A stretch of 64,000 nucleotides of DNA from Escherichia coli (GTDB lineage Bacteria > Pseudomonadota > Gammaproteobacteria > Enterobacterales > Enterobacteriaceae): NCBI RefSeq assembly GCF_003334785.1, contig NZ_QOWV01000004.1; one strand, 5' to 3'. Positions 2,753 to 45,507 of the stretch are shown one piece after another. The notes below the pieces were generated by a model. The model searched no databases. It had not been told where the DNA came from and worked only from the letters and a program-made list of their open reading frames with translations. Each line of letters starts with the position of its first letter. The first letter of the stretch is position 1. Both the position numbers and the translations under genes were made by a program.

Positions 2753-4687
2753 TTACTTGTCGCCTAACTGCTCTGACATGGTGTTACCCGGGTTCGGCGT
2801 ACGCGGTTCATCAACCGGACGAGGAGCCTTTGGACTACCATTGTCGCCAGAATTGTTAGAAGCGCCTGGTTCTTCCCAGCCCGCTGGCGGACGTACATCG
2901 CGACGTGCCATCAGGTCATCAATCTGCGGTGCGTCGATAGTCTCATATTTCATGAGAGCATCTTTCATCGCATGCAGAATATCCATATTGTCGGTCAGAA
3001 GCTGACGCGCACGATTATAGTTACGCTCAATCAGTGCTTTCACTTCCTGGTCGATGATACGTGCAGTTTCATCGGACATATGTTTCGCTTTCGCTACGCT
3101 ACGGCCGAGGAACACTTCACCTTCTTCTTCCGCGTACAGCAGTGGACCCAATTTCTCAGAGAAGCCCCACTGAGTCACCATGTTACGTGCCAGGTTGGTC
3201 GCAACTTTAATATCGTTGGACGCACCGGTAGATACATGTTCCGGCCCGTAGATGATCTCTTCTGCCAGACGACCACCGTACAGCGTAGAAATCTGGCTTT
3301 CCAGTTTCTGACGGCTGGCGCTGATTGCGTCGCCCTCAGGCAAGAAGAAAGTCACACCCAGCGCACGACCGCGTGGGATAATCGTCACTTTGTGCACCGG
3401 ATCGTGTTCCGGCACCAGGCGACCGATAATCGCATGACCCGCTTCGTGGTAAGCCGTCGATTCTTTCTGCGCTTCCGTCATCACCATGGAGCGACGTTCC
3501 GCACCCATCATGATTTTGTCTTTCGCTTTCTCGAACTCAACCATCGACACAACGCGTTTGTTGCCACGAGCAGCGAACAGTGCCGCTTCGTTCACCAGGT
3601 TCGCCAGGTCAGCACCGGAGAAACCAGGAGTACCACGGGCAATGATTGCCGCGTCGATATCGGGTGCCAATGGTACGCGACGCATGTGAACTTTCAGGAT
3701 CTGCTCACGACCGCGAACATCTGGCAAGCCGACCACAACCTGACGGTCGAAACGGCCAGGACGCAGCAGGGCCGGGTCGAGAACGTCCGGACGGTTAGTC
3801 GCGGCGATAACGATGATACCTTCGTTACCTTCGAAGCCATCCATCTCAACCAGCATCTGGTTCAGAGTCTGTTCACGTTCATCGTGACCACCGCCCAGAC
3901 CAGCGCCACGCTGGCGGCCTACGGCGTCGATTTCATCGATAAAGATGATGCACGGTGCCGCTTTCTTCGCCTGTTCGAACATGTCACGAACACGGGATGC
4001 ACCCACACCGACGAACATTTCTACGAAGTCAGAACCGGAGATAGTAAAGAACGGAACTTTCGCTTCGCCTGCAATCGCTTTCGCCAGCAGCGTTTTACCG
4101 GTACCCGGAGGACCGACCATCAAGACGCCTTTCGGGATCTTACCGCCGAGTTTCTGGAAGCGGCTCGGCTCGCGCAGATACTCAACCAGTTCAGCAACTT
4201 CTTCTTTTGCTTCGTCGCAGCCCGCAACGTCAGCAAAGGTCGTTTTGATCTGATCTTCCGTCAGCATGCGCGCTTTGCTCTTACCAAACGACATGGCACC
4301 TTTGCCACCGCCGCCCTGCATTTGACGCATGAAGAAGATCCAGACACCAATCAGCAACAGCATCGGGAACCAGGAGATGAAGATAGAAGCCAGCAGGCTT
4401 GGTTCTTCAGGCGGTTCACCGACAACCTTGACGTTCTTGGTCAACAGGTTATCCAGTAATTTCGGATCCTGAACCGGAATGTAAGTGGTATAACGGTTAC
4501 TATCTTTCTTGGTAACGTTGATTTCACGTCCGTTGATACGCGCTTCACGAACCTGGTCGTTATTGACCTCTTGTAGGAAGGTAGAGTAATCCACCTTACG
4601 GCCATTAGACTCGCTGGGCCCAAAGCTCTGGAATACTGACATCAGCACAACGGCAATGACCAGCCAGAGTATTAGGTTTTTCGCCAT
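2753..4687 (-). CDS. ftsH: ATP-dependent zinc metalloprotease FtsH
   Basis: 644 aa from ATG (MAKNLILW...); Walker [14 protein letters not shown] zinc site; track ORF extends 3 codons upstream to a TTG. Confidence 0.97.
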
Positions 4688-4786
4688 GTCACTCAAGGGA
4701 TTAACCTCTTATTACAACTGTGTTAAAAACAGCGTCAGGATACTCTATATCCAGCATCTTTCAAACTTTCGTCTGAAATCTCCCGG

Positions 4787-5416
4787 TTAGGGTTTACGCC
4801 CGGTCGCTACAATATACACTTCCCGCGAACGTGCACGAGAAGAGTCCGGCTTACGAACTTTGACCTTCGTAAACAGGGAGCGAATTTCCCTTAGATACTC
4901 ATCGAAACCTTCGCCCTGGAACACCTTCACTACAAAACTGCCACCTGGCGCTAATACATCACGACACATTTCTAGCGCCAGTTCCACCAGATACATGGCA
5001 CGGGGGATATCCACCGCCGGTGTTCCGCTCATGTTTGGTGCCATATCGGACATGACAACCTGGACTTTGCTGTCGCCAACGCGCTCCAGCAGTGCTTTCA
5101 TCACCAGTTCATCACGAAAATCGCCCTGAAGAAAGTCCACACCAACGATAGGATCCATAGGTAAAAGATCGCAAGCGATGATGCGGCCTTTGCCGCCAAT
5201 TTGGGTGACCACATATTGTGACCAACCACCCGGAGCAGCACCAAGGTCGACAACCGTCATTCCCGGTTTAAAGAGTTTGTCACTTTGCTGTATTTCATCA
5301 AGTTTAAACCAGGCACGGGAACGTAACCCCTTTTTCTGTGCCTGTTGAACATATTTATCGCTAAAGTGTTCCTGAAGCCAGCGGCTGGAGCTGGCAGAAC
5401 GCTTCTTACCTGTCAT
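4787..5416 (-). CDS. rlmE: 23S rRNA U2552 2'-O-methyltransferase
   Basis: 209 aa; [39 protein letters not shown]...; SAM-binding [11 protein letters not shown]. Confidence 0.96.
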
Positions 5417-5541
5417 TTAACTTTCCCATGGGGATAACTCATCGTAACCAATTGCGTAAATTTTTACGCGCCTATTTGGTGATATATGGGAGATGGCGGT
5501 AGAATGACCCGTTTTCAATCCCAACGTAAGCAAAAAATACG

Positions 5542-5835
5542 ATGAATCTGAGTACTAAACAAAAACAGCACCTGAAAGGTCTGGCACATCCGCTCAAGCC
5601 AGTTGTTCTGCTTGGCAGTAATGGTTTGACCGAAGGGGTGCTGGCCGAGATTGAACAAGCGTTAGAGCACCATGAACTCATCAAGGTGAAAATCGCCACC
5701 GAAGATCGCGAAACTAAAACCTTGATCGTGGAAGCTATCGTGCGCGAAACCGGCGCCTGTAATGTACAGGTCATCGGTAAAACGCTGGTGCTTTATCGCC
5801 CAACTAAAGAACGTAAAATCTCGCTGCCACGCTAA
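5542..5835 (+). CDS. yhbY: RNA-binding protein YhbY (CRS1/YhbY domain)
   Basis: 97 aa; MNLSTKQKQHLKGLAHPLKPVVLLGSNGLTEGV... Confidence 0.95.
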   Translation: MNLSTKQKQHLKGLAHPLKPVVLLGSNGLTEGVLAEIEQALEHHELIKVKIATEDRETKTLIVEAIVRETGACNVQVIGKTLVLYRPTKERKISLPR

Positions 5836-5923
5836 GATTATCCTAAAGTTACACACATTTGCTGTGTAAAACGAGGGGTTTTCCGCAGGCAGGAGAGCAA
5901 AATGCCACGCTCTGTTCGTTGAT

Positions 5924-5950
5924 AAAAGGCCGCATAGCGGCCTTTTTCCT
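5924..5950. terminator. Bidirectional intrinsic terminator between yhbY and greA
   Basis: AAAAGGCCGC-ATAG-CGGCCTTTTT hairpin with A-run on one side and T-run on the other, between convergent genes. Confidence 0.7.
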
Positions 5951-5990
5951 TTCTTTACAATACATCAACATCTTGAGTATTGGGTAATTC

Positions 5991-6467
<477 letters not shown>

Positions 6468-6561
6468 TTGTTATACCTCTTGAATATTCCTGATAGGGCA
6501 AGTCTTCACCCACCCCGGCTGTTCGGCCTGCCCGGCATAACTCCTTACCGGGACCAGAAGC

Positions 6562-6640
6562 AAAAAAATACCGACCCGGGTACAAGTCCCAGGTCAGCTA
6601 CAATTCACATTTTGATAGTCATTTTACCCTGAAGTTCCCG
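6562..6640 (-). ncRNA. graL: greA leader region with intrinsic terminator (candidate GraL leader RNA); boundaries approximate
   Basis: On the minus strand a GACCUGGG..CCCGGGUC hairpin followed by a U7 run lies about 95 nt upstream of the greA start; 5' end not determinable from sequence. Confidence 0.35.
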
Positions 6641-6714
6641 AAGGGTCATCGTTTACTTTATAGGGCGTTGCGCCGTAGTATGACGGCTCGATTCCAGGTT
6701 GTTAGCGCGAGATT

Positions 6715-8148
6715 ATGCGATTTTCCAGATTTATCATCGGATTGACCAGCTGTATAGCGTTCAGTGTTCAGGCCGCAAATGTTGATGAGTACATTACTCA
6801 ACTCCCCGCTGGTGCCAACCTTGCCCTGATGGTGCAAAAAGTCGGCGCGTCGGCCCCCGCTATTGATTACCACAGTCAGCAGATGGCGCTGCCTGCCAGT
6901 ACCCAGAAAGTGATTACTGCGCTGGCGGCGTTGATTCAACTCGGCCCCGATTTTCGTTTTACCACGACGCTTGAAACCAAAGGCAATGTGGAAAACGGCG
7001 TACTTAAGGGTGACTTAGTGGCGCGATTTGGTGCCGATCCGACGTTAAAACGTCAGGATATTCGCAATATGGTCGCGACTTTGAAAAAATCTGGCGTCAA
7101 CCAAATCGATGGCAATGTGTTGATAGATACCTCCATTTTCGCCAGCCACGATAAAGCCCCCGGCTGGCCATGGAATGACATGACACAATGCTTTAGCGCT
7201 CCGCCTGCCGCCGCCATAGTTGACCGCAACTGTTTCTCCGTCTCGCTCTACAGTGCCCCAAAGCCTGGTGATATGGCTTTTATACGCGTGGCATCTTATT
7301 ACCCCGTTACGATGTTCAGCCAGGTACGCACCCTCCCCCGTGGTTCTGCCGAAGCGCAATACTGCGAACTGGATGTGGTGCCAGGCGACCTGAACCGCTT
7401 TACGCTGACGGGATGCCTGCCACAACGTTCTGAGCCGCTCCCGTTGGCTTTTGCCGTGCAGGATGGAGCCAGCTATGCCGGTGCAATTCTGAAAGATGAG
7501 TTAAAACAGGCGGGTATCACCTGGAGCGGAACACTGCTGCGCCAGACTCAGGTTAACGAACCTGGAACGGTAGTTGCCAGTAAACAGTCGGCCCCGCTGC
7601 ACGATCTGCTTAAGATTATGCTGAAAAAGTCGGACAACATGATCGCCGATACGGTTTTCCGCATGATAGGCCATGCGCGCTTCAATGTGCCTGGAACATG
7701 GCGGGCCGGGTCGGACGCCGTGCGTCAGATCCTGCGCCAGCAAGCCGGTGTCGATATTGGAAACACCATTATTGCCGATGGTTCAGGGCTTTCGCGGCAT
7801 AACCTGATTGCCCCCGCCACCATGATGCAGGTGCTGCAATACATTGCCCAACACGACAATGAACTTAACTTTATCTCCATGCTGCCGCTGGCGGGCTATG
7901 ACGGCTCTTTGCAGTACCGTGCAGGTCTGCATCAGGCGGGCGTGGATGGAAAAGTCTCAGCGAAAACCGGTTCGTTGCAGGGGGTATATAACCTGGCGGG
8001 ATTCATTACCACAGCGAGCGGGCAACGAATGGCGTTTGTGCAATATCTTTCTGGCTATGCAGTAGAACCTGCGGATCAGCGTAATCGCCGTATTCCGTTA
8101 GTGCGTTTTGAAAGCCGTTTGTATAAAGATATTTATCAGAACAATTAG
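6715..8148 (+). CDS. dacB: D-alanyl-D-alanine carboxypeptidase/endopeptidase PBP4
   Basis: 477 aa; signal peptide MRFSRFIIGLTSCIAFSVQA; STQK active-site motif. Confidence 0.96.
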   Translation: MRFSRFIIGLTSCIAFSVQAANVDEYITQLPAGANLALMVQKVGASAPAIDYHSQQMALPASTQKVITALAALIQLGPDFRFTTTLETKGNVENGVLKGDLVARFGADPTLKRQDIRNMVATLKKSGVNQIDGNVLIDTSIFASHDKAPGWPWNDMTQCFSAPPAAAIVDRNCFSVSLYSAPKPGDMAFIRVASYYPVTMFSQVRTLPRGSAEAQYCELDVVPGDLNRFTLTGCLPQRSEPLPLAFAVQDGASYAGAILKDELKQAGITWSGTLLRQTQVNEPGTVVASKQSAPLHDLLKIMLKKSDNMIADTVFRMIGHARFNVPGTWRAGSDAVRQILRQQAGVDIGNTIIADGSGLSRHNLIAPATMMQVLQYIAQHDNELNFISMLPLAGYDGSLQYRAGLHQAGVDGKVSAKTGSLQGVYNLAGFITTASGQRMAFVQYLSGYAVEPADQRNRRIPLVRFESRLYKDIYQNN

Positions 8149-8158
8149 TCAAAAAGAA

Positions 8159-8179
8159 ACCCCGGCACATGGCCGGGGC
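8159..8179 (+). terminator. Hairpin downstream of dacB (probable terminator)
   Basis: CCCCGGC-ACATG-GCCGGGG perfect 7-bp stem 11 nt after the dacB stop; weak T tract. Confidence 0.5.
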
Positions 8180-8211
8180 TTCAGATTATTGACAAAGTGC
8201 GCTTTGTTTAT

Positions 8212-8309
<98 letters not shown>

Positions 8310-21163: not shown

Positions 21164-21689
21164 TCTTGTGCTTGCCAGCTCACTTCTGGCCGCCAGCATT
21201 CCGGCATTTGCCGTAACCGGAGACACTGATCAGCCGATCCACATTGAATCGGACCAGCAATCTCTTGATATGCAAGGCAACGTGGTTACCTTTACCGGTA
21301 ATGTCATCGTCACCCAGGGCACCATCAAAATTAATGCCGACAAAGTGGTCGTTACCCGTCCGGGCGGCGAACAAGGTAAAGAAGTGATTGACGGCTACGG
21401 TAAACCGGCAACGTTCTACCAGATGCAGGACAACGGTAAACCCGTTGAAGGTCACGCTTCCCAGATGCACTACGAACTGGCAAAAGATTTTGTCGTTCTG
21501 ACGGGTAATGCTTATCTGCAGCAGGTCGATAGCAACATTAAGGGCGATAAGATCACTTACCTGGTGAAAGAGCAGAAAATGCAGGCTTTCAGCGACAAAG
21601 GCAAGCGCGTAACAACCGTTCTGGTGCCGTCTCAGCTGCAGGACAAAAACAACAAAGGCCAGACCCCGGCACAGAAGAAGGGTAATTAA
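21132..21689 (+). CDS. lptA: LPS export periplasmic protein LptA
   Basis: 185 aa from ATG (MKFKTNKLSLNLVLASSLLAASIPAFA...); overlaps lptC 3' end by 32 nt. Confidence 0.95.
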   Translation: MKFKTNKLSLNLVLASSLLAASIPAFAVTGDTDQPIHIESDQQSLDMQGNVVTFTGNVIVTQGTIKINADKVVVTRPGGEQGKEVIDGYGKPATFYQMQDNGKPVEGHASQMHYELAKDFVVLTGNAYLQQVDSNIKGDKITYLVKEQKMQAFSDKGKRVTTVLVPSQLQDKNNKGQTPAQKKGN

Positions 21690-38368: not shown

Positions 38369-38381
38369 GCGAGGTAACAAT

Positions 38382-38409
38382 GAATTCGCCAGACTGTGTC
38401 TGGCGAATC
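38382..38409. repeat. Palindromic unit (GAATTCGCCAGAC-TGT-GTCTGGCGAATC), 13 nt after the gltD stop
   Basis: 12-13 bp perfect inverted arms with 3-nt centre; same family as the units in and after yhcG. Confidence 0.8.
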
Positions 38410-38927
38410 AAATTACTGACGAAGTGCGCGTTGTTTTCTGGCAAATGCGGCATGAGCGTTTGACCTTTCCTATAATAGGGATAATTTTCAATAAATTGTG
38501 CTTTGTTCACCAAGTCTGATGAGTGAAGCACATCAAGCAATTTCTCATTTACAATCCGTCTCAATTACTTGTTAACACCTCTGACAATACCGATTCTGCA
38601 AGCTATTCAGTCTTTTCATTCCATGTAAATTGTCTCGATATTAATATACAAAATATGAATATAAAAAACCAATATATTATCCTTAATTATCTATATATTT
38701 TCCTATTTTTCAGCGCAAACATTCATGTAATGAATAATTATCACCACAAACCACCTCACCAGCACCTTATTATTCACATGATCGTAACTATAAAATTCAT
38801 TAAATAAATACATCCCAGCAAGTTGGCTATTTCTGAACGAGTTATTTATTTACATTCACAAACAGATATATATACTGCTTCAGCTTTTTATTTTAAAAAA
38901 TAAATTTGTTATTAAGGATATGTTCAT

Positions 38928-39692
38928 ATGTTTTTCAAAAAGAACCTCACAACAGCTGCTATTTGTGCAGCACTTTCTGTTGCAGCATTCAGTGCCATGG
39001 CAACAGATTCAACTGATACAGAATTAACTATCATCGGCGAGTATACCCCTGGTGCATGTACCCCAGTTGTTACGGGCGGCGGCATTGTTGACTATGGGAA
39101 ACATCATAACAGTGCGCTGAATCCGACCGGTAAAAGTAATAAACTGGTTCAACTGGGCCGCAAAAACAGCACATTAAATATAACCTGCACAGCACCAACG
39201 CTAATTGCTGTAACCTCCAAGGATAACCGTCAGTCGACCATTGTAGCGTTAAACGACACATCCTATATTGAAAAAGCTTATGATACTCTCGTAGATATGA
39301 AGGGAACGAAAAACGCCTTTGGTTTAGGTTCTGCGCCTAATGGACAAAAAATTGGCGCTGCATCCATTGGTATTGACAGGTCTAATGGTGGGATTCACGC
39401 GGCGGACGATACAGGTGAAATTCCTGTCGACCTGATTCAAACTGACCACTGGTCAGCAGCGACCCCCACATGGAAAGCCTCATCTAATGGCGCATTCTGC
39501 TCGCTGACAAGTTGCTCAGCAATCGAGCGCGGTTATTCTGTTGCAAAAACAGGGGAACTGACACCTGTTGCCATTACAGCGGTCACCTTCCCGTTACTGA
39601 TTGATGCTGCGGTAAATGACAATACTATTCTTGGTTCTGATGAAACGATCAAACTGGATGGTAACGTCACTATCAGCGTTCAGTATTTATAA
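38928..39692 (+). CDS. gltF: GltF, periplasmic fimbrial-subunit-like protein (DUF1120 family)
   Basis: 254 aa; signal peptide MFFKKNLTTAAICAALSVAAFSAMA; C-terminal ...KLDGNVTISVQYL shared with yhcF. Confidence 0.9.
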   Translation: MFFKKNLTTAAICAALSVAAFSAMATDSTDTELTIIGEYTPGACTPVVTGGGIVDYGKHHNSALNPTGKSNKLVQLGRKNSTLNITCTAPTLIAVTSKDNRQSTIVALNDTSYIEKAYDTLVDMKGTKNAFGLGSAPNGQKIGAASIGIDRSNGGIHAADDTGEIPVDLIQTDHWSAATPTWKASSNGAFCSLTSCSAIERGYSVAKTGELTPVAITAVTFPLLIDAAVNDNTILGSDETIKLDGNVTISVQYL

Positions 39693-39863
39693 GAACTTGT
39701 AATACAGTTTTTATTTTTACGCATTAACCAGTTAGCTATAACTCGGACAGATTATGCCCTATGACATGGTCTGTCTTAATCAATCTCATCGCAAACAGTG
39801 CATAACATATATTAACAATATGTTTCTGCGTTATTTATCATTATTACAGGAGTTTTAATTTAA

Positions 39864-40538
39864 ATGCTCAGACACATTACATTCACTGTATTTATAACAA
39901 CATCAATGAATACCTTAGCCACAGGGATGGTTCCTGAAACATCAGTATTGCTGGTTGATGAAAAGCGTGGTGAAGCTAGTATTAATATTAAGAATACAGA
40001 TGATCATCCTTCATTGCTTTACACCACCATTGTTGATTTGCCTGAAAGCAATAAATCAATTCGTTTAATCCCGACTCAGCCCGTTATTCGTGTTGAAGCC
40101 GGTCAAGTACAACAGGTTCGATTTTTACTTCAGGCGACTGTTCCTCTGCAATCAGAAGAGCTGAAACGCGTAACGTTCGAAGGTATTCCACCAAAAGATG
40201 ACAAGAGCAGCAGAGTTACTGTTTCAATTCGTCAGGATCTACCTGTACTGATCCACCCGGCTTCCCTGCCGGAAGAGCGAGAGACCTGGAAATTCCTGGA
40301 ATGGCGTAAAAATGGCGACCAAATTGAGATTAGCAACCCCAGTAATTATGTCGTTCGTATGACCTTACAATTTAAAACGCTCCCTTCAGGAAAAACGGGG
40401 GCTATAAATAAGACCTATTTTCTACCACACACCAGTACAACTACTGCATTAACAAACGCTACGGATACAAAAGTCGAGTTTTACCCAGCCAGCCGATATG
40501 GTTATCGCGGTAATAAATATGTCACTGACTTAAAATAA
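39864..40538 (+). CDS. yhcA: Fimbrial periplasmic chaperone (PapD-like)
   Basis: 224 aa; MLRHITFTVFITTSMNTLATGMVPETSVLLVDEKRGEASINIKNTDD... Confidence 0.9.
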   Translation: MLRHITFTVFITTSMNTLATGMVPETSVLLVDEKRGEASINIKNTDDHPSLLYTTIVDLPESNKSIRLIPTQPVIRVEAGQVQQVRFLLQATVPLQSEELKRVTFEGIPPKDDKSSRVTVSIRQDLPVLIHPASLPEERETWKFLEWRKNGDQIEISNPSNYVVRMTLQFKTLPSGKTGAINKTYFLPHTSTTTALTNATDTKVEFYPASRYGYRGNKYVTDLK

Positions 40539-40558
40539 CTTTGCCTGGAGCGACAAGG

Positions 40559-42940
40559 ATGTTAAAAAAAACGTTACTGGCCTACACCATTGGTTTTGCC
40601 TTTTCTCCCCCAGCCAATGCAGATGGTATAGAGATTGCCGCTGTTGATTTTGATCGGGAAACATTAAAATCACTAGGTGTAGATCCTAATATATCGCATT
40701 ATTTTTCCCGTTCAGCCCGTTTTTTGCCAGGTGAATATTCACTGATAGTATCAGTAAATGGCGAAAAAAAAGGCAACATTGCTACGCGCTTTGATGAAAA
40801 TGGCGACATTTGTCTTGATCAGGCATTTCTGCAACAAGCCGGTTTAAAAATTCCTTCTGAAGAAAAAAATGGCTGTTACGACTATATATTGTCCTACCCG
40901 GGTACCACAATCACACCATTACCTAACCAGGAAGCGTTAGATATTATCGTTTCACCACAGGCGATCATTCCCATAGGGTTGGATCTCACAAACGCAGCAA
41001 CTGGTGGAACAGCTGCGCTGCTAAACTACTCTCTGATGAGCAGCCGTGCAGAATTTTCTAATGGGAGTTCGGACTACTCCCAGGCTGCACTTGAAGGCGG
41101 GATTAATATTAATGACTGGATGTTACGCAGCCATCAGTTCCTTACACAAACAAATGGCACATTCAGTAACCAGAACTCGTCAACCTACCTTCAACGTACC
41201 TTTACAGATCTTAAAACACTCATGCGAGCAGGTGAAGTTAACCTCAATAATAGCGTGTTGGAAGGAGCCAGTATTTACGGTATCGAAATCGCACCGGACA
41301 ACGCATTGCAAACCAGCGGCAATGGTGTGCAAGTTACTGGTATAGCCAACACCTCTCAGGCTCGTGTCGAGATTCGTCAACAAGGAGTTTTAATTCATTC
41401 CATTCTGGTTCCTGCGGGCGCATTCACTATCCCTGATGTACCTGTTCGCAATGGTAATAGTGATCTTAATGTCACCGTTGTCGAAACAGACGGTAGTTCG
41501 CACAACTATATTGTTCCCTCCACCCTGTTTAATCAGCATGTAGAAAGCTTCCAGGGTTATCGCTTCGCGATAGGGCGGGTAGACGATGACTATGACGAAT
41601 CACCTTGGGTAATTAGTGCATCGAGCGGATGGAATCTGACACGCTGGAGTGCAATGAACGGCGGCGTTATCGTAGCAGAAAATTATCAGGCGGCATCAAT
41701 CCGGTCGAGTCTGGTTCCCCTGCCCGATTTAACAGTGAGCAGCCAAATTAGTACATCGCAGGATACGAAAGACTCACTGCAAGGACAGAAATATCGTCTT
41801 GACGCGAACTACAATCTCCCATTTTCACTTGGGCTAACAACCAGCCTCACTCGATCTGATCGCCATTATCGCGAACTGTCTGAAGCGATTGATGATGATT
41901 ATACCGATCCGACTAAAAGCACTTATGCGCTTGGTTTAAACTGGTCTAACTCCATTCTGGGTGGTTTCAACATCAGTGGCTATAAAACATATAGTTACGA
42001 CGGTGACAATGACTCAAGCAACCTTAATATTAACTGGAACAAAGCGTTCAAACACGCCACGGTTTCCGTCAACTGGCAGCATCAACTTAGTGCTTCAGAA
42101 AATAATGAAGACGATGGTGATCTGTTCTACGTCAACATCAGTATTCCATTTGGCAGATCAAACACCGCCACACTGTATACTCGCCATGACGATCATAAAA
42201 CCCACTATGGTACTGGTGTCATGGGAGTCGTCTCAGATGAGATGTCCTACTATGTGAATGCTGAACGAGATCACGACGAACGTGAAACGAGCTTGAACGG
42301 CAGTATCAGTTCCAATCTCCATTACACCCAAGTCAGCCTTGCCGCAGGAGCAAGCGGCAGTGATAGCCGTACTTACAACGGTACGATGTCAGGTGGTATT
42401 GCCGTACATGATCAGGGAGTGACCTTTTCACCGTGGACTATCAATGACACTTTCGCCATCGCAAAAATGGATAACAATATTGCAGGTGTCAGAATTACAT
42501 CTCAGGCAGGCCCAGTATGGACAGATTTTCGGGGTAATGCCGTCATTCCATCAATCCAGCCGTGGCGAACATCAGGAGTTGAGATCGATACCGCCAGCTT
42601 GCCAAAAAATGTCGATATCGGTAACGGCACAAAAATGATCAAACAAGGCCGTGGTGCAGTAGGGAAAGTCGGATTCAGTGCGATAACACAACGCCGTGCA
42701 TTACTCAATATCACACTTTCCGACGGCAAAAAACTGCCCAGAGGCGTTGCGATTGAAGATAGTGAAGGCAACTATCTGACAACATCAGTGGATGACGGTG
42801 TTGTATTCCTCAATAACATCAAACCGGACATGGTGCTAGATATAAAAGATGAGCAGCAATCATGCCGTATTCACCTTACATTCCCAGAAGATGCACCAAA
42901 AGATGTGTTCTATGAGACAGCAACAGGAGAGTGCCAATGA
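40559..42940 (+). CDS. yhcD: Fimbrial outer membrane usher
   Basis: 793 aa from ATG (MLKKTLLAYTIGFAFSPPANA...); C-terminal Cys pair. Confidence 0.9.
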   Translation: MLKKTLLAYTIGFAFSPPANADGIEIAAVDFDRETLKSLGVDPNISHYFSRSARFLPGEYSLIVSVNGEKKGNIATRFDENGDICLDQAFLQQAGLKIPSEEKNGCYDYILSYPGTTITPLPNQEALDIIVSPQAIIPIGLDLTNAATGGTAALLNYSLMSSRAEFSNGSSDYSQAALEGGININDWMLRSHQFLTQTNGTFSNQNSSTYLQRTFTDLKTLMRAGEVNLNNSVLEGASIYGIEIAPDNALQTSGNGVQVTGIANTSQARVEIRQQGVLIHSILVPAGAFTIPDVPVRNGNSDLNVTVVETDGSSHNYIVPSTLFNQHVESFQGYRFAIGRVDDDYDESPWVISASSGWNLTRWSAMNGGVIVAENYQAASIRSSLVPLPDLTVSSQISTSQDTKDSLQGQKYRLDANYNLPFSLGLTTSLTRSDRHYRELSEAIDDDYTDPTKSTYALGLNWSNSILGGFNISGYKTYSYDGDNDSSNLNINWNKAFKHATVSVNWQHQLSASENNEDDGDLFYVNISIPFGRSNTATLYTRHDDHKTHYGTGVMGVVSDEMSYYVNAERDHDERETSLNGSISSNLHYTQVSLAAGASGSDSRTYNGTMSGGIAVHDQGVTFSPWTINDTFAIAKMDNNIAGVRITSQAGPVWTDFRGNAVIPSIQPWRTSGVEIDTASLPKNVDIGNGTKMIKQGRGAVGKVGFSAITQRRALLNITLSDGKKLPRGVAIEDSEGNYLTTSVDDGVVFLNNIKPDMVLDIKDEQQSCRIHLTFPEDAPKDVFYETATGECQ

Positions 42941-43482
42941 AACGGATAATAACAGGATGCCTGCTGCTGAACTTCGCCATGGCCGCTCAGGCAGAGTGTA
43001 ATATCTCCAGTAGCATACAAAATATCGACTATGGCAAACGAAGTGCTGCCATGCGCCAAGTTGACCGGGGTAAAACAACACAATTAGCAGACAGAACAAT
43101 CACGCTGGTAATGCAATGCGATCAGGACGCTCATATTCGTGTTCAGTTGAATACCGCTAATATTTCCAACAACGGATTTGGATTTGGCCCGAATGGTTCA
43201 TTAAATCTGATCGCCAGCGATGCATTTTCAGGTAGTAACAATCTCGACCTGGCGTTAGCCAGTGGCAAAAATGACAATCCGGGCAGCACAGGAACAGCAT
43301 CAATTAGTACTTCCCCCAATAATTGGCTGGTGTTTATGCAAAATGGTCAAGAAGTGGTAATTGATAGCGGTAAAAGCGTTAGCCTCACACTGACAATGGC
43401 TCCAGCTTTTAAGGATGAAGGGGAACTAACCGACATGACAGATATTACAGGCAATCTGACGGTCCTGGTGGAGGCAAAATGA
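42937..43482 (+). CDS. yhcE: Putative fimbrial subunit YhcE (DUF1120-like), apparently intact
   Basis: 181 aa from ATG overlapping the yhcD stop (ATGA); signal peptide MKRIITGCLLLNFAMAAQA; no insertion sequence in or near the ORF. Confidence 0.8.
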   Translation: MKRIITGCLLLNFAMAAQAECNISSSIQNIDYGKRSAAMRQVDRGKTTQLADRTITLVMQCDQDAHIRVQLNTANISNNGFGFGPNGSLNLIASDAFSGSNNLDLALASGKNDNPGSTGTASISTSPNNWLVFMQNGQEVVIDSGKSVSLTLTMAPAFKDEGELTDMTDITGNLTVLVEAK

Positions 43483-44195
43483 ACAATGTAAAATTACTGA
43501 TTGCCGGAAGTGCCTTTTTTGCCATGTCAGCGCAAGCCGCTGATAGAGTATCAATTGACGTTAAGGTGACTCTGGAAGCTGCAGCTTGTACTCCAATACT
43601 AAGCAACGGCGGAGTTGTTAACTTCGGTAGTCATTCAGTCAATAGACTTTCAACGCAGCACTACACACAGATTGGAACACGTAATATTAATATGACTATA
43701 ACTTGCGAATCCGCTACCGGCATTGCGATTACCGCTCGTGATACACGAATGGATAGTATGACCACCGGAAAAGATAGTGGGGGTCAGAGTGGTGTAAAAT
43801 ATACCTTAAATGGCGGAGGTTATATTAGCCAGACAACGCGCTTATTCGGCTTAGGGAAAACAAAAGATAATAAAAATATCGGTAGTTATGCCGTGTTAAT
43901 TGATAGCAACAACATTAGTGCCAGCAATGGTAGCCAGACGTTAGCTGTATCAATAGCAGGTGCAGATGCCGTCATAACAGGGCAAAAAAGAGCATGGCAA
44001 ACGCTCACCGCTTATCCGCTTGCAGTCGATCAAAGCTATTATTACACCTTTGTAAAACCAGGTGAAACAACCCCAACTCCTGTAACGAACGCCATTATAC
44101 CGCTTCAGGTGAGCGCATCTATCGCGAATGATTTAGGCGGTTCAGAAAAAATCGAACTTGATGGGAAAGCTGTGATAAGCGTAGTCTACTTGTGA
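43479..44195 (+). CDS. yhcF: Putative fimbrial subunit YhcF (DUF1120 family)
   Basis: 238 aa; signal peptide MNNVKLLIAGSAFFAMSAQA; C-terminal ...ELDGKAVISVVYL paralogous to gltF. Confidence 0.85.
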   Translation: MNNVKLLIAGSAFFAMSAQAADRVSIDVKVTLEAAACTPILSNGGVVNFGSHSVNRLSTQHYTQIGTRNINMTITCESATGIAITARDTRMDSMTTGKDSGGQSGVKYTLNGGGYISQTTRLFGLGKTKDNKNIGSYAVLIDSNNISASNGSQTLAVSIAGADAVITGQKRAWQTLTAYPLAVDQSYYYTFVKPGETTPTPVTNAIIPLQVSASIANDLGGSEKIELDGKAVISVVYL

Positions 44196-44379
44196 TAACA
44201 ATGCCGGACAGGAGTACTATCAGGCATTCGTTTTATACGATCGGTTAATGTTTCAGGAAAGCTCTTCGCATATCTTGGGGAAAGTAAATGTAATACGCTG
44301 TTCTTAATTGTTCAGTGCTCACCCCCCAGAGTATAGCTCATTCCATTATTCAACTTAGCTCCATATAAAGGGACAGATA

Positions 44380-45507
44380 ATGGAATCGCTCTCAGAAGGA
44401 ACCACAGCAGGCTACCAGCAAATCCACGACGGTATTATTCATCTGGTCGATAGCGCCCGGACGGAAACGGTACGTAGCGTTAACGCGTTAATGACCGCGA
44501 CGTACCAGGAAATTGGCCGACGAATTGTCGAATTTGAACAAGGTGGCGAGGCCAGGGCTGCGTATGGTGCGCAGCTAATCAAGCGACTATCAAAGGATTT
44601 ATGTCTAAGGTATAAGCGTGGGTTCTCTGCAAAAAACTTACGCCAAATGAGGCTTTTTTACCTCTTTTTTCAACATGTTGAAATTCGCCAGACAATGTCT
44701 GGCGAATTAACACCATTGGGAATTCCGCAGACACCGTCTGCAGAATTCCCATCGGCAAAGATTTGGCAGACGCTGTCTGCCAAATCTTTCCCCTTGCCCA
44801 GGTCCACCTACGTCCGTTTACTTTCCGTTAAAAACGCTGACGCCCGCAGCTTTTATGAAAAAGAGACGCTCCGCTGTGGCTGGTCTGTTCGCCAGCTAGA
44901 GCGGCAAATTGCGACCCAGTTTTATGAGCGGACACTACTGTCACATGACAAATCAGCCATGCTGCAACAACACGCTCCTGCCGAGACGCATATTCTTCCG
45001 CAACAGGCGATACGCGATCCCTTTGTGCTCGAATTTCTGGAATTGAAAGATGAATATTCAGAATCCGATTTTGAGGAGGCGCTGATCAACCACCTGATGG
45101 ATTTCATGCTGGAACTTGGGGATGATTTTGCCTTTGTTGGTCGGCAGCGAAGGTTACGCATTGATGACAACTGGTTTCGTGTCGATCTGCTGTTTTTCCA
45201 CCGCCGTTTACGCTGCCTGCTAATCGTCGATCTAAAAGTGGGCAAATTCAGCTATAGCGATGCCGGACAGATGAATATGTATCTCAACTACGCCAAAGAG
45301 CACTGGACGCTACCGGATGAAAATCCGCCCATCGGTCTGGTTCTCTGTGCAGAGAAAGGAGCCGGAGAAGCGCATTATGCTCTGGCAGGTTTGCCTAACA
45401 CCGTTCTGGCAAGCGAATATAAGATGCAACTACCTGATGAGAAACGACTCGCAGATGAACTCGTTCGAACACAGGCGGTGCTAGAGGAAGGCTATAGACG
45501 CCGTTAA
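44380..45507 (+). CDS. yhcG: YhcG, DUF1016-family protein with PD-(D/E)xK nuclease-like C-terminal region
   Basis: 375 aa; MESLSEGTTAGYQQIHDGIIHLVDSARTE...; C-terminal ...RVDLLFFHRRLRCLLIVDLKVGKF... resembles a D...(D/E)xK core; contains three in-frame palindromic repeat units. Confidence 0.85.
   Translation: MESLSEGTTAGYQQIHDGIIHLVDSARTETVRSVNALMTATYQEIGRRIVEFEQGGEARAAYGAQLIKRLSKDLCLRYKRGFSAKNLRQMRLFYLFFQHVEIRQTMSGELTPLGIPQTPSAEFPSAKIWQTLSAKSFPLPRSTYVRLLSVKNADARSFYEKETLRCGWSVRQLERQIATQFYERTLLSHDKSAMLQQHAPAETHILPQQAIRDPFVLEFLELKDEYSESDFEEALINHLMDFMLELGDDFAFVGRQRRLRIDDNWFRVDLLFFHRRLRCLLIVDLKVGKFSYSDAGQMNMYLNYAKEHWTLPDENPPIGLVLCAEKGAGEAHYALAGLPNTVLASEYKMQLPDEKRLADELVRTQAVLEEGYRRR
44682..44787. 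repeat. Three tandem 27-29 bp palindromic units (CAGAC-N3-GTCTG core) inside the yhcG coding sequence
   Basis: Units at 44682-44708, 44720-44748 and 44759-44787 with 38-39 bp periodicity; 12-13 bp inverted arms, two perfect and one with a single mismatch. Confidence 0.8.

Follow-up and report, generated by a model that had tools for sequence, protein, structure and literature searches.

The closest described counterpart of the locus reported here is the Yhc cluster of Escherichia coli K-12 MG1655 (b3214-b3219). Its usher, YhcD, represents E. coli in the beta clade of ushers (PMC3559732, PMC3032704, PMC5216030), and the annotation gives its yhcE (b4569) as a pseudogene in two pieces, one on each side of IS5R (3365556-3366750). 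Intact beta-class yhc loci were described by Del Canto et al. (2017) in colonisation-factor-negative ETEC of phylogroup A (PMC5216030), where the function of YhcE is called unclear. For beta-class fimbriae no fibre, expression or adhesion has been published, and deletion of yhc in an ETEC strain left adherence to Caco-2 cells unchanged (PMC5216030). They are the sole chaperone-usher clade that experiments have yet to characterise, and the copy in K-12, where such systems are usually tested, is broken.

The window, a stretch of 64,000 nucleotides of E. coli DNA, is collinear in alignment with MG1655 3322249-3387447. Very probably, what it carries is the Yhc operon of the chromosome (gltF-yhcADEF), ancestral in form and without an interruption, and the strain is phylogroup-A-like, closely related to K-12 yet distinct from it. 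An intact Yhc operon is already known and is not a discovery; what is proposed here is a place for YhcE in the fibre.

Genes and flanking DNA of the locus

Five intact open reading frames (gltF, yhcA, yhcD, yhcE, and yhcF) lie on the same strand at 38928-44195 of the window (Table 1). The translations contain no internal stops, and re-reading for frameshifts or stops left all five intact. The yhcD/yhcE and yhcE/yhcF junctions are ATGA overlaps. The original prediction had yhcE uninterrupted, and so it is: 181 codons without a stop, a single TTAG, and no IS sequence.

The cluster had also been predicted to be of the chaperone-usher type, and YhcA and YhcD both score above the cut-offs of curated models. 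YhcA matches NF007392 at 319.7 bits (cut-off 183; E 9.3e-96), and its orthologues in E. ruysiae and E. albertii carry PapD_N (PF00345); YhcD matches NF011832 at 1271.6 bits (cut-off 723), and its orthologues in the same species carry PapC_N, Usher, and PapC_C. The PapD-like chaperone and the outer-membrane usher of a chaperone-usher operon are thereby both present. The YhcD of the window, one residue from that of K-12, falls in the beta clade of the Nuccio-Baumler usher phylogeny, as placed via published trees. YhcD is the reference usher of the beta clade. Among the chaperone-usher fimbrial loci of E. coli, Yhc alone is of the beta clade.

Table 1 Positions of genes and other features of the Yhc locus in the window
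Feature	Position	Strand	Remarks
gltD-gltF intergenic region	38369..38927	+	AT-rich; GC 0.31-0.39 against 0.52-0.60 in flanking gltBD
Perfect inverted repeat	38383-38410		just past gltD stop
Promoter-like site	38849-38876		TTTACA-16-TATACT, 10/12
gltF	38928-39692	+	254 aa; one synonymous SNP against K-12
Hairpin, gltF-yhcA spacer	39745..39776	+	12-bp stem; RNA fold of 39685-39870, z = -2.56 against shuffles
yhcA	39864-40538	+	224 aa; PapD-like periplasmic chaperone; yhcA in MG1655 and RefSeq annotation
yhcD	40559-42940	+	793 aa from annotated ATG; ORF opens with TTG at 40541; outer-membrane usher
yhcE	42937-43482	+	181 aa from annotated ATG; upstream GTG at 42931 opens ORF
Unoccupied IS5 target	43304-43307	+	single TTAG; two BLAST segments against MG1655 overlap there
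yhcF	43479-44195	+	238 aa; start overlaps yhcE stop

The gltD-gltF intergenic region is presumed to be the promoter and silencing region of the cluster. Scans for promoter and terminator consensus sequences gave no excess over shuffles (11 against 15.3 expected; 6 against 7.6) and, being at or below that expectation, say nothing on regulation. The spacer stem between gltF and yhcA is not followed by a T-run; it might, speculatively, be an attenuator or an mRNA-stability element. The literature search on yhcD and H-NS returned only an entry in a PhoB ChIP table.

Distribution and selection

Among 5426 complete E. coli genomes, yhcE was found in 1142, the cluster being present in about 21% and missing from ~79%. 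Nucleotide identity among the 1142 carriers is >99%. The comparison with other E. coli genomes, which had been suggested as a check, found yhcE uninterrupted in 783 of the carriers. In other strains the 6-kb cluster region contains IS1, IS3, IS150, IS903B, or ISKpn26, and these insertions, together with the absence from ~79% of genomes, fit weak selection within E. coli. At the same gltD/nan site, this five-gene cluster is also present in E. ruysiae and E. albertii. The lengths of the five genes are maintained across the Escherichia species at this shared locus, with dN/dS of 0.05-0.22 against these two species, and the cluster genes are under purifying selection. An intact yhc locus is the usual natural state and has already been published as such (PMC5216030, PMC3032704).

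The five intact reading frames and these dN/dS values support the original view of the operon as potentially functional. The possible but doubtful alternative is a decaying cryptic remnant: a silent operon without a functional organelle, its reading frames intact here by chance. Presence in only about a fifth of the genomes and the independent IS insertions would suit a remnant; the gene lengths and dN/dS kept across Escherichia at the same site would not. To the first side belong also a premature yhcD stop in one ETEC strain, truncated yhcF variants in other strains, and the yhc deletion without an adhesion phenotype (PMC5216030), as well as upstream DNA that is AT-rich, as is typical of silenced loci. 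To the second belong the conservation of the architecture, including a YhcE-type gene, in distant bacteria, and the large uninterrupted share of the carriers, whose high identity leaves little time for decay to appear.

DUF1120 subunits and the YhcE family

GltF and YhcF match Pfam DUF1120 (PF06551) over model positions 1-116 of 116 (E 1.8e-45 and 2.3e-47, respectively) and are 30% identical over their full length (E 6e-26). Both have an apparent signal peptide, a Cys pair, a C-terminal strand whose penultimate residue is Tyr, and a 16-18-residue alternating-hydrophobic N-terminal extension (ADRVSIDVKVTLEAAA in YhcF), which we read as a putative donor strand. Their C-termini (GltF, LDGNVTISVQYL; YhcF, LDGKAVISVVYL) follow the pattern LDG-xxx-ISV-x-YL; the shared strand had been foreseen correctly, with the spacing from LDG to ISV given as two residues where there are three. 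GltF is presumed to be the major subunit because gltF is the first gene. PDB sequence searches with GltF and with a YhcE profile returned no relevant solved structure, and the literature search on DUF1120 and gltF returned nothing relevant.

The original prediction counted three DUF1120 paralogues, which stands for GltF and YhcF and fails for YhcE. The match of YhcE to the DUF1120 HMM is not significant (E = 0.12; 13 bits; model positions 22-60 only), and neither are its BLASTP comparisons with GltF or YhcF taken alone (E = 0.017 against YhcF). Among 27 members of its family, none matches DUF1120 at E <= 0.001 and seven do at E <= 0.1. Comparison of profiles (hhalign) does relate YhcE to DUF1120, at 94.8% and E 5.4e-8 over 155 columns and the whole mature length, and the predicted model of YhcE, the one model in which this was seen, has a pilin-type fold. 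YhcE is a distant pilin-fold relative of the DUF1120 subunits, visible at the level of profile and fold only.

Full-length similarity to proteins encoded directly after beta-class ushers places YhcE in the YhcE family. The identical protein WP_000821351.1 is named 'YhcE family protein' in RefSeq, which annotates an identical locus, and residues 4-181 match NF011829/PRK15301 at E 7.5e-15 (54.8 bits, below the equivalog cut-off of 226). A word-indexed search for homologues reached Escherichia only; an exhaustive profile search was used instead and gave 119 representatives. In loci L007-L010 a YhcE-like gene comes immediately after the usher gene, the two overlapping by 4 nt, and the same cluster layout was found on the seven contigs examined. 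In YhcE the conserved Cys pair sits where pilins have theirs, and the Y-L ending shared by GltF and YhcF is missing. With cleavage sites read by eye from the AXA rule, 27/27 representatives of the family have their first conserved Cys 1-5 residues past the apparent signal-peptide cleavage site; an extension of 15-18 residues precedes it in 13/13 GltF/YhcF relatives. Judged by these sequences, the YhcE family has no N-terminal donor strand.

A lipoprotein was considered for YhcE and rejected: 21 of the 27 have D or E immediately ahead of the conserved Cys, the lipobox fits none of the 27, and this Cys has a second conserved Cys as its partner.

Natural fusions of a YhcE-type N-domain to a YhcF-type C-domain occur in other bacteria (14 representatives, 374-398 aa), and their linker is the YhcF-type N-terminal strand. 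When mature YhcE was joined through DNKQ to the N-terminal strand of YhcF, AF2 gave a pLDDT of 91.4, a gain from 70.6 that is confounded by the deeper alignment and the removal of the signal peptide in the second run. In this model the added strand (167-178) is predicted to pair with C-terminal strand 149-161 as a hairpin.

If Yhc works like the chaperone-usher systems already characterised, Sec would export all five products, YhcA would bind the subunits in the periplasm through donor-strand complementation, and YhcD would polymerise them at the outer membrane through donor-strand exchange. YhcE would accept a strand but could not donate one; a pilin fold without a donor strand could therefore be placed only at the distal end. 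The fibre would then run from YhcE (tip) through YhcF (adaptor, its N-terminal strand completing YhcE) to a GltF polymer. We infer from sequence anatomy and single-chain models that YhcE is probably the subunit at the distal tip, with YhcF as its cap, because it has no donor strand, its gene directly follows the usher gene, and fusions to YhcF-type domains occur. Beta-fimbriae have been described as without tip subunits. The wider reading, on which we are evenly divided, is that the YhcE family is an unrecognised beta-fimbrial tip subunit completed by the N-terminal strand of a YhcF-type protein, E. coli YhcE and YhcF being the split version of a two-domain tip adhesin made by other Proteobacteria as a single protein of 375-395 aa. 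The donor-strand-free YhcE and the natural fusions give a concrete, testable order of assembly.

It is less likely, though worth weighing, that YhcE is a periplasmic accessory and not a fibre subunit; it might, say, regulate assembly or act as a chaperone-bound terminator that stays at the usher throughout. The lack of an assigned Pfam family, the missing Y-L C-terminus, and a function described as unclear (PMC5216030) leave room for such a role. Against it stand a pilin-type fold, a profile-level relationship to DUF1120 subunits that spans the entire mature protein, and a conserved Cys pair at the pilin position. In the fusions, moreover, the YhcE domain is N-terminal to a polymerisable YhcF-type domain, as in two-domain tip adhesins. 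Known terminators such as PapH keep their donor strand, unlike YhcE.

For GltF, a role as nitrogen-regulation factor of a gltBDF operon instead of a fimbrial subunit is very improbable. Its gene comes next after gltBD, in the same orientation, and the name gltF presumably reflects early genetic work and the historical nitrogen-regulation reading. The protein, annotated in MG1655 as 'periplasmic protein GltF', nevertheless contains a DUF1120 domain, is 30% identical to YhcF, and shows an apparent signal peptide along with the pilin-like N-terminal extension, Cys pair, and C-terminus; 559 bp of DNA of 31-39% GC separate gltD from gltF; and genomes without the fimbrial cluster retain gltBD and have no gltF.

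Comparison with K-12 and other chaperone-usher systems

Between the window and MG1655 there are 7 SNPs in 64 kb, and the 1195-bp IS5R is missing from the window; identity is 99.99% on either side of the IS5R point. K-12 has the arrangement TTAG-IS5-TTAG, with the target duplicated, and MG1655 junction sequences ...CAATTAG/GGAAGGTGCGAA and ...CCTTCC/TTAGTACTT; the window has one TTAG. The disrupted K-12 allele, with IS5 between the duplicated TTAG at yhcE codon ~124, is absent from the window. The suggestion in the original prediction that IS5 disrupts yhcE in K-12 agrees with the MG1655 annotation, and the alignment that it called for found the gene split there and intact here. The records of split yhcE that were sampled are all interrupted at the same point, and most are named K-12 laboratory derivatives; this and the seven SNPs bear out the non-K-12 background proposed for the window. 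Two of the SNPs fall in the cluster, namely the synonymous one in gltF and one that gives YhcD N255 for S255 of K-12; nonsynonymous SNPs include this change in yhcD and one in yhcG (R103/H103).

An origin of the window in an engineered (MDS-type) K-12 derivative freed of IS elements, in place of a natural strain outside K-12, might be suggested by 99.99% identity over 64 kb with the precise absence of IS5R as sole structural difference. It was rejected as extremely improbable, since an engineered IS-free MG1655 would match at the seven SNP sites spread through the window, and since the 6-kb cluster is 100% identical in the natural isolates JKHS016 and AST198 and a 25-kb region is a near-perfect match in the natural isolates NCTC9087 and FORC_081.

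As stated, the finding matters little: the window is not K-12, and the K-12 reference is the exception at the yhc locus. The intact allele, 99.9% identical to that of K-12, is directly movable into K-12. The K-12 insertion would remove the tip or initiating subunit and probably lower yhcF expression by polarity; if the tip reading is true, what is lost is exactly the receptor-binding or initiating end.

MG1655 Yhc has the same chromosomal site, gene order, and sequence as the window, and differs in carrying IS5R in yhcE, which here is complete. The intact yhc loci of ETEC (PMC5216030) and of some 780 complete RefSeq genomes have the same five genes and no insertion sequence; the same paper describes truncated yhcF2 and yhcF3 variants, whereas the window has a full-length yhcF of 717 bp, and nothing material differs otherwise. 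The two-domain tip adhesins FimH, PapG, LpfD, CfaE, and CupB6 of classical chaperone-usher pili are single polypeptides, whereas YhcE and YhcF of E. coli are separate; neither resembles known lectin domains in sequence. AfaD/DraD, to our knowledge, belong to a different usher clade and have no detectable sequence relationship to YhcE. In Afa/Dr fibrils AfaD/DraD form a one-domain cap that accepts the donor strand of a fibre subunit at the distal end, and to this cap YhcE may be likened.

Genomic organization and comparison with K-12

Five ORFs with 0 internal stops occupy one strand of the window at 38928-44195, between gltBD upstream and yhcG and the nan operon downstream. ATGA overlaps, typical of translational coupling, are present at both the yhcD/yhcE and yhcE/yhcF junctions. 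G+C content is 43% in the cluster versus 51% in the window and 52-60% in the immediate flanks, and drops to 31-39% in the 559-bp gltD-gltF spacer.

Coordinates of the gltF-yhcADEF genes in the window
Gene	Position	Length	Remark
gltF	38928-39692	254 aa	
yhcA	39864-40538	224 aa	
yhcD	40559-42940	793 aa	counted from annotated ATG
yhcE	42937-43482	181 aa	counted from annotated ATG
yhcF	43479-44195	238 aa	

The perfect inverted repeat GAATTCGCCAGAC-TGTG-TCTGGCGAATC at 38383-38410, 15 bp past the gltD stop, could mark where gltBD transcription stops, and would then set gltF apart from gltBD. A candidate hairpin with a 12-bp stem, GGACAGATTATG...CATGGTCTGTCT, is located at 39745-39776 inside the 171-bp gltF-yhcA spacer (spacer fold z = -2.56 versus shuffles; no T-run after the stem) and, by analogy with other fimbrial operons, could set the ratio of major subunit to assembly genes. 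The PhoB ChIP-seq site reported for K-12 at MG1655 3362763, GGTAATAAATATGTCACT (PMC10294691), is kept at 40509-40526, at the yhcA 3' end just upstream of yhcD.

MG1655 3322249-3387447 is collinear with the entire window, which BLAST aligns in two segments (99.991% and 99.986% identity) abutting at a 1195-bp insert in MG1655, annotated as IS5R (3365556-3366750, insH10). TTAG flanks IS5 on both sides in K-12; the single TTAG in the window, at 43304-43307, is the pristine empty IS5 site. With yhcE (b4569) annotated in MG1655 as a pseudogene made up of two fragments, annotation and alignment agree with the original prediction that yhcE is disrupted by IS5 in K-12 but uninterrupted here. Seven single-base differences from MG1655 are scattered over the 64 kb and rule out an engineered IS-free MG1655 as source; those in or beside the cluster are a synonymous change in gltF, YhcD N255 (K-12 S255), and YhcG R103 (K-12 H103). 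The other four, outside the cluster and yhcG, are at 21632, 28821, 48320, and 56581. These differences and the missing IS5R bear out the suggested non-K-12 background, and the source is a natural strain that is very near K-12 here. Strains JKHS016 and AST198 have the 6-kb cluster at 100% identity; the surrounding 25 kb has near-perfect matches in NCTC9087 and FORC_081.

Distribution and conservation in Escherichia

The intact locus was correctly observed and is already known. Archer et al. (2011) give the K-12 entry as 'gltF-yhcF, beta, IS5::yhcE' and report that W, B, and Crooks lack the locus (PMC3032704). Wurpel et al. (2013) assign Yhc to the beta clade; their dataset contained no intact copy (PMC3559732). 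In 13 ETEC genomes of phylogroup A, Del Canto et al. (2017) found the complete gltF-yhcADEF locus without an IS, and they noted 353 database entries identical to YhcE, whose function they termed unclear (PMC5216030).

Of 5426 complete E. coli genomes, 1142 carry the yhcE sequence (identity at least 99% in all), and in 783 of these carriers it is uninterrupted, i.e., one single place covers at least 80% of the gene; intact yhcE is the common natural allele, not unusual. Split records sampled from among the lowest-ranked hits (H68-H79) all break at query position 377, the IS5 target, and are mostly named K-12 laboratory derivatives (J53, BW2952, HB101, Origami, NBRC 3301); ER2796 kept only the distal yhcE fragment. 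The cluster is missing from the remaining ~79% of complete genomes; where it is missing (L014, L015), ~180 bp separate gltD from a downstream yhcG allele whose 5' end is ~80% identical to that of the window's yhcG. The window's yhcG (44380-45507, 375 aa) belongs to the DUF1016/PDDEXK nuclease family; it is truncated beside a transposase gene in ATCC 8739, which is without the cluster, and absent in E. albertii, while in E. ruysiae only an ORF of 68 codons is left.

In E. ruysiae (L012) and E. albertii (L013), the same five-gene cluster lies intact and with unchanged gene lengths in the gltD-nan interval, at 3000-8265 of both loci. Nei-Gojobori dN/dS against the window was 0.05-0.22 for all genes with unsaturated dS (yhcE, 0.16) and 0.02 for flanking gltD. 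By the shared site and these ratios, the cluster is no recent acquisition: it has long been present in Escherichia, is under purifying selection, and has been lost from most E. coli lineages. Divergence is mosaic, greatest for gltF, yhcA, and yhcD against E. ruysiae and for yhcE and yhcF against E. albertii, a pattern suggestive of recombination close to where yhcD meets yhcE. The fimbrial genes have a far higher dS (0.6 to above 3) than flanking gltD (~0.3).

Five intact ORFs and the low dN/dS support the potentially functional operon proposed earlier. A strong present role in E. coli is doubtful: many other strains carry independent IS1, IS3, IS150, IS903B, or ISKpn26 insertions at window positions 38400-44400 (RefSeq comparison), which is therefore a recurrent IS target, and in the sole published phenotype test yhc deletion left Caco-2 adherence unchanged (PMC5216030).

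YhcE as a proposed tip subunit

YhcA and YhcD pass the curated cut-offs of the fimbrial chaperone model NF007392 (319.7 bits; cut-off 183) and the usher model NF011832 (1271.6 bits; cut-off 723). GltF and YhcF match Pfam DUF1120 unambiguously (E 1.8e-45 and 2.3e-47, respectively), are 30% identical over the full length (E 6e-26), and have the C-terminus LDG-xxx-ISV-x-YL in common; this motif had been noted earlier, with spacing one residue too short. 'Three DUF1120 paralogues' fits GltF and YhcF and is too strong for YhcE, because the latter is below significance against Pfam DUF1120 (E = 0.12) and marginal in pairwise BLASTP against GltF/YhcF.

Profiles extend the comparison. An exhaustive search yielded 119 YhcE family representatives, and a 27-member YhcE-family alignment matched a 13-member GltF/YhcF alignment (94.8% probability, E 5.4e-8) over 155 columns, which start at the first conserved Cys, run to the C-terminus, and leave out the signal peptide. 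The AF2 model of YhcE with signal peptide is all-beta, of moderate confidence (pLDDT 70.6); its Foldseek hits in AFDB50 (E 1e-12 to 1e-8) were models labelled 'Fimbrial protein', 'DUF1120 domain-containing protein', and 'Beta-fimbriae major subunit'. The confidence gain in a second run (mature YhcE, linker, and YhcF N-terminal strand) is confounded by a deeper alignment and the removed signal peptide.

All 13 GltF/YhcF relatives have a 15-18-residue alternating-hydrophobic segment between signal peptide and first Cys (e.g., ADRVSIDVKVTLEAAA-C), a putative donor strand by its match to that of pilins in position and pattern. In 27/27 YhcE relatives the homologous Cys is only 1-5 residues past the apparent AXA cleavage site, because of which YhcE-type proteins would have the acceptor fold and nothing to donate.

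In every locus from other bacteria with enough flank (L007-L010), the YhcE-type gene is directly 3' of the usher gene and overlaps it by 4 nt; further upstream are a chaperone gene and 2-3 genes for DUF1120 proteins. Natural fusions (14 representatives of 374-398 aa: P0097, P0103, P0107, P0115, and 10 more) join a YhcE-type domain at the N-terminus (E 1e-25 to 1e-36) to a DUF1120/YhcF-type domain at the C-terminus, which ends in ...LDGxATIE(I/V)xYL; the linker is the YhcF-type N-terminal strand. The fusion gene of L007 (7001-8128) is in the post-usher position and is, in effect, a joined version of E. coli yhcE and yhcF.

Gene position and fusions fit a distal-tip role. Under standard chaperone-usher assembly the fibre order would be YhcE (tip) - YhcF (adaptor) - GltF(n); we infer this order and the tip function from gene content and anatomy. 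We give this hypothesis roughly an even chance; if YhcE is the tip, the K-12 insertion removes a tip or initiator subunit. The tip reading is the only part here that goes past the literature searched: in the published view, as quoted in PMC5216030, tip subunits are lacking from beta-fimbriae, whereas YhcE is here proposed as one.
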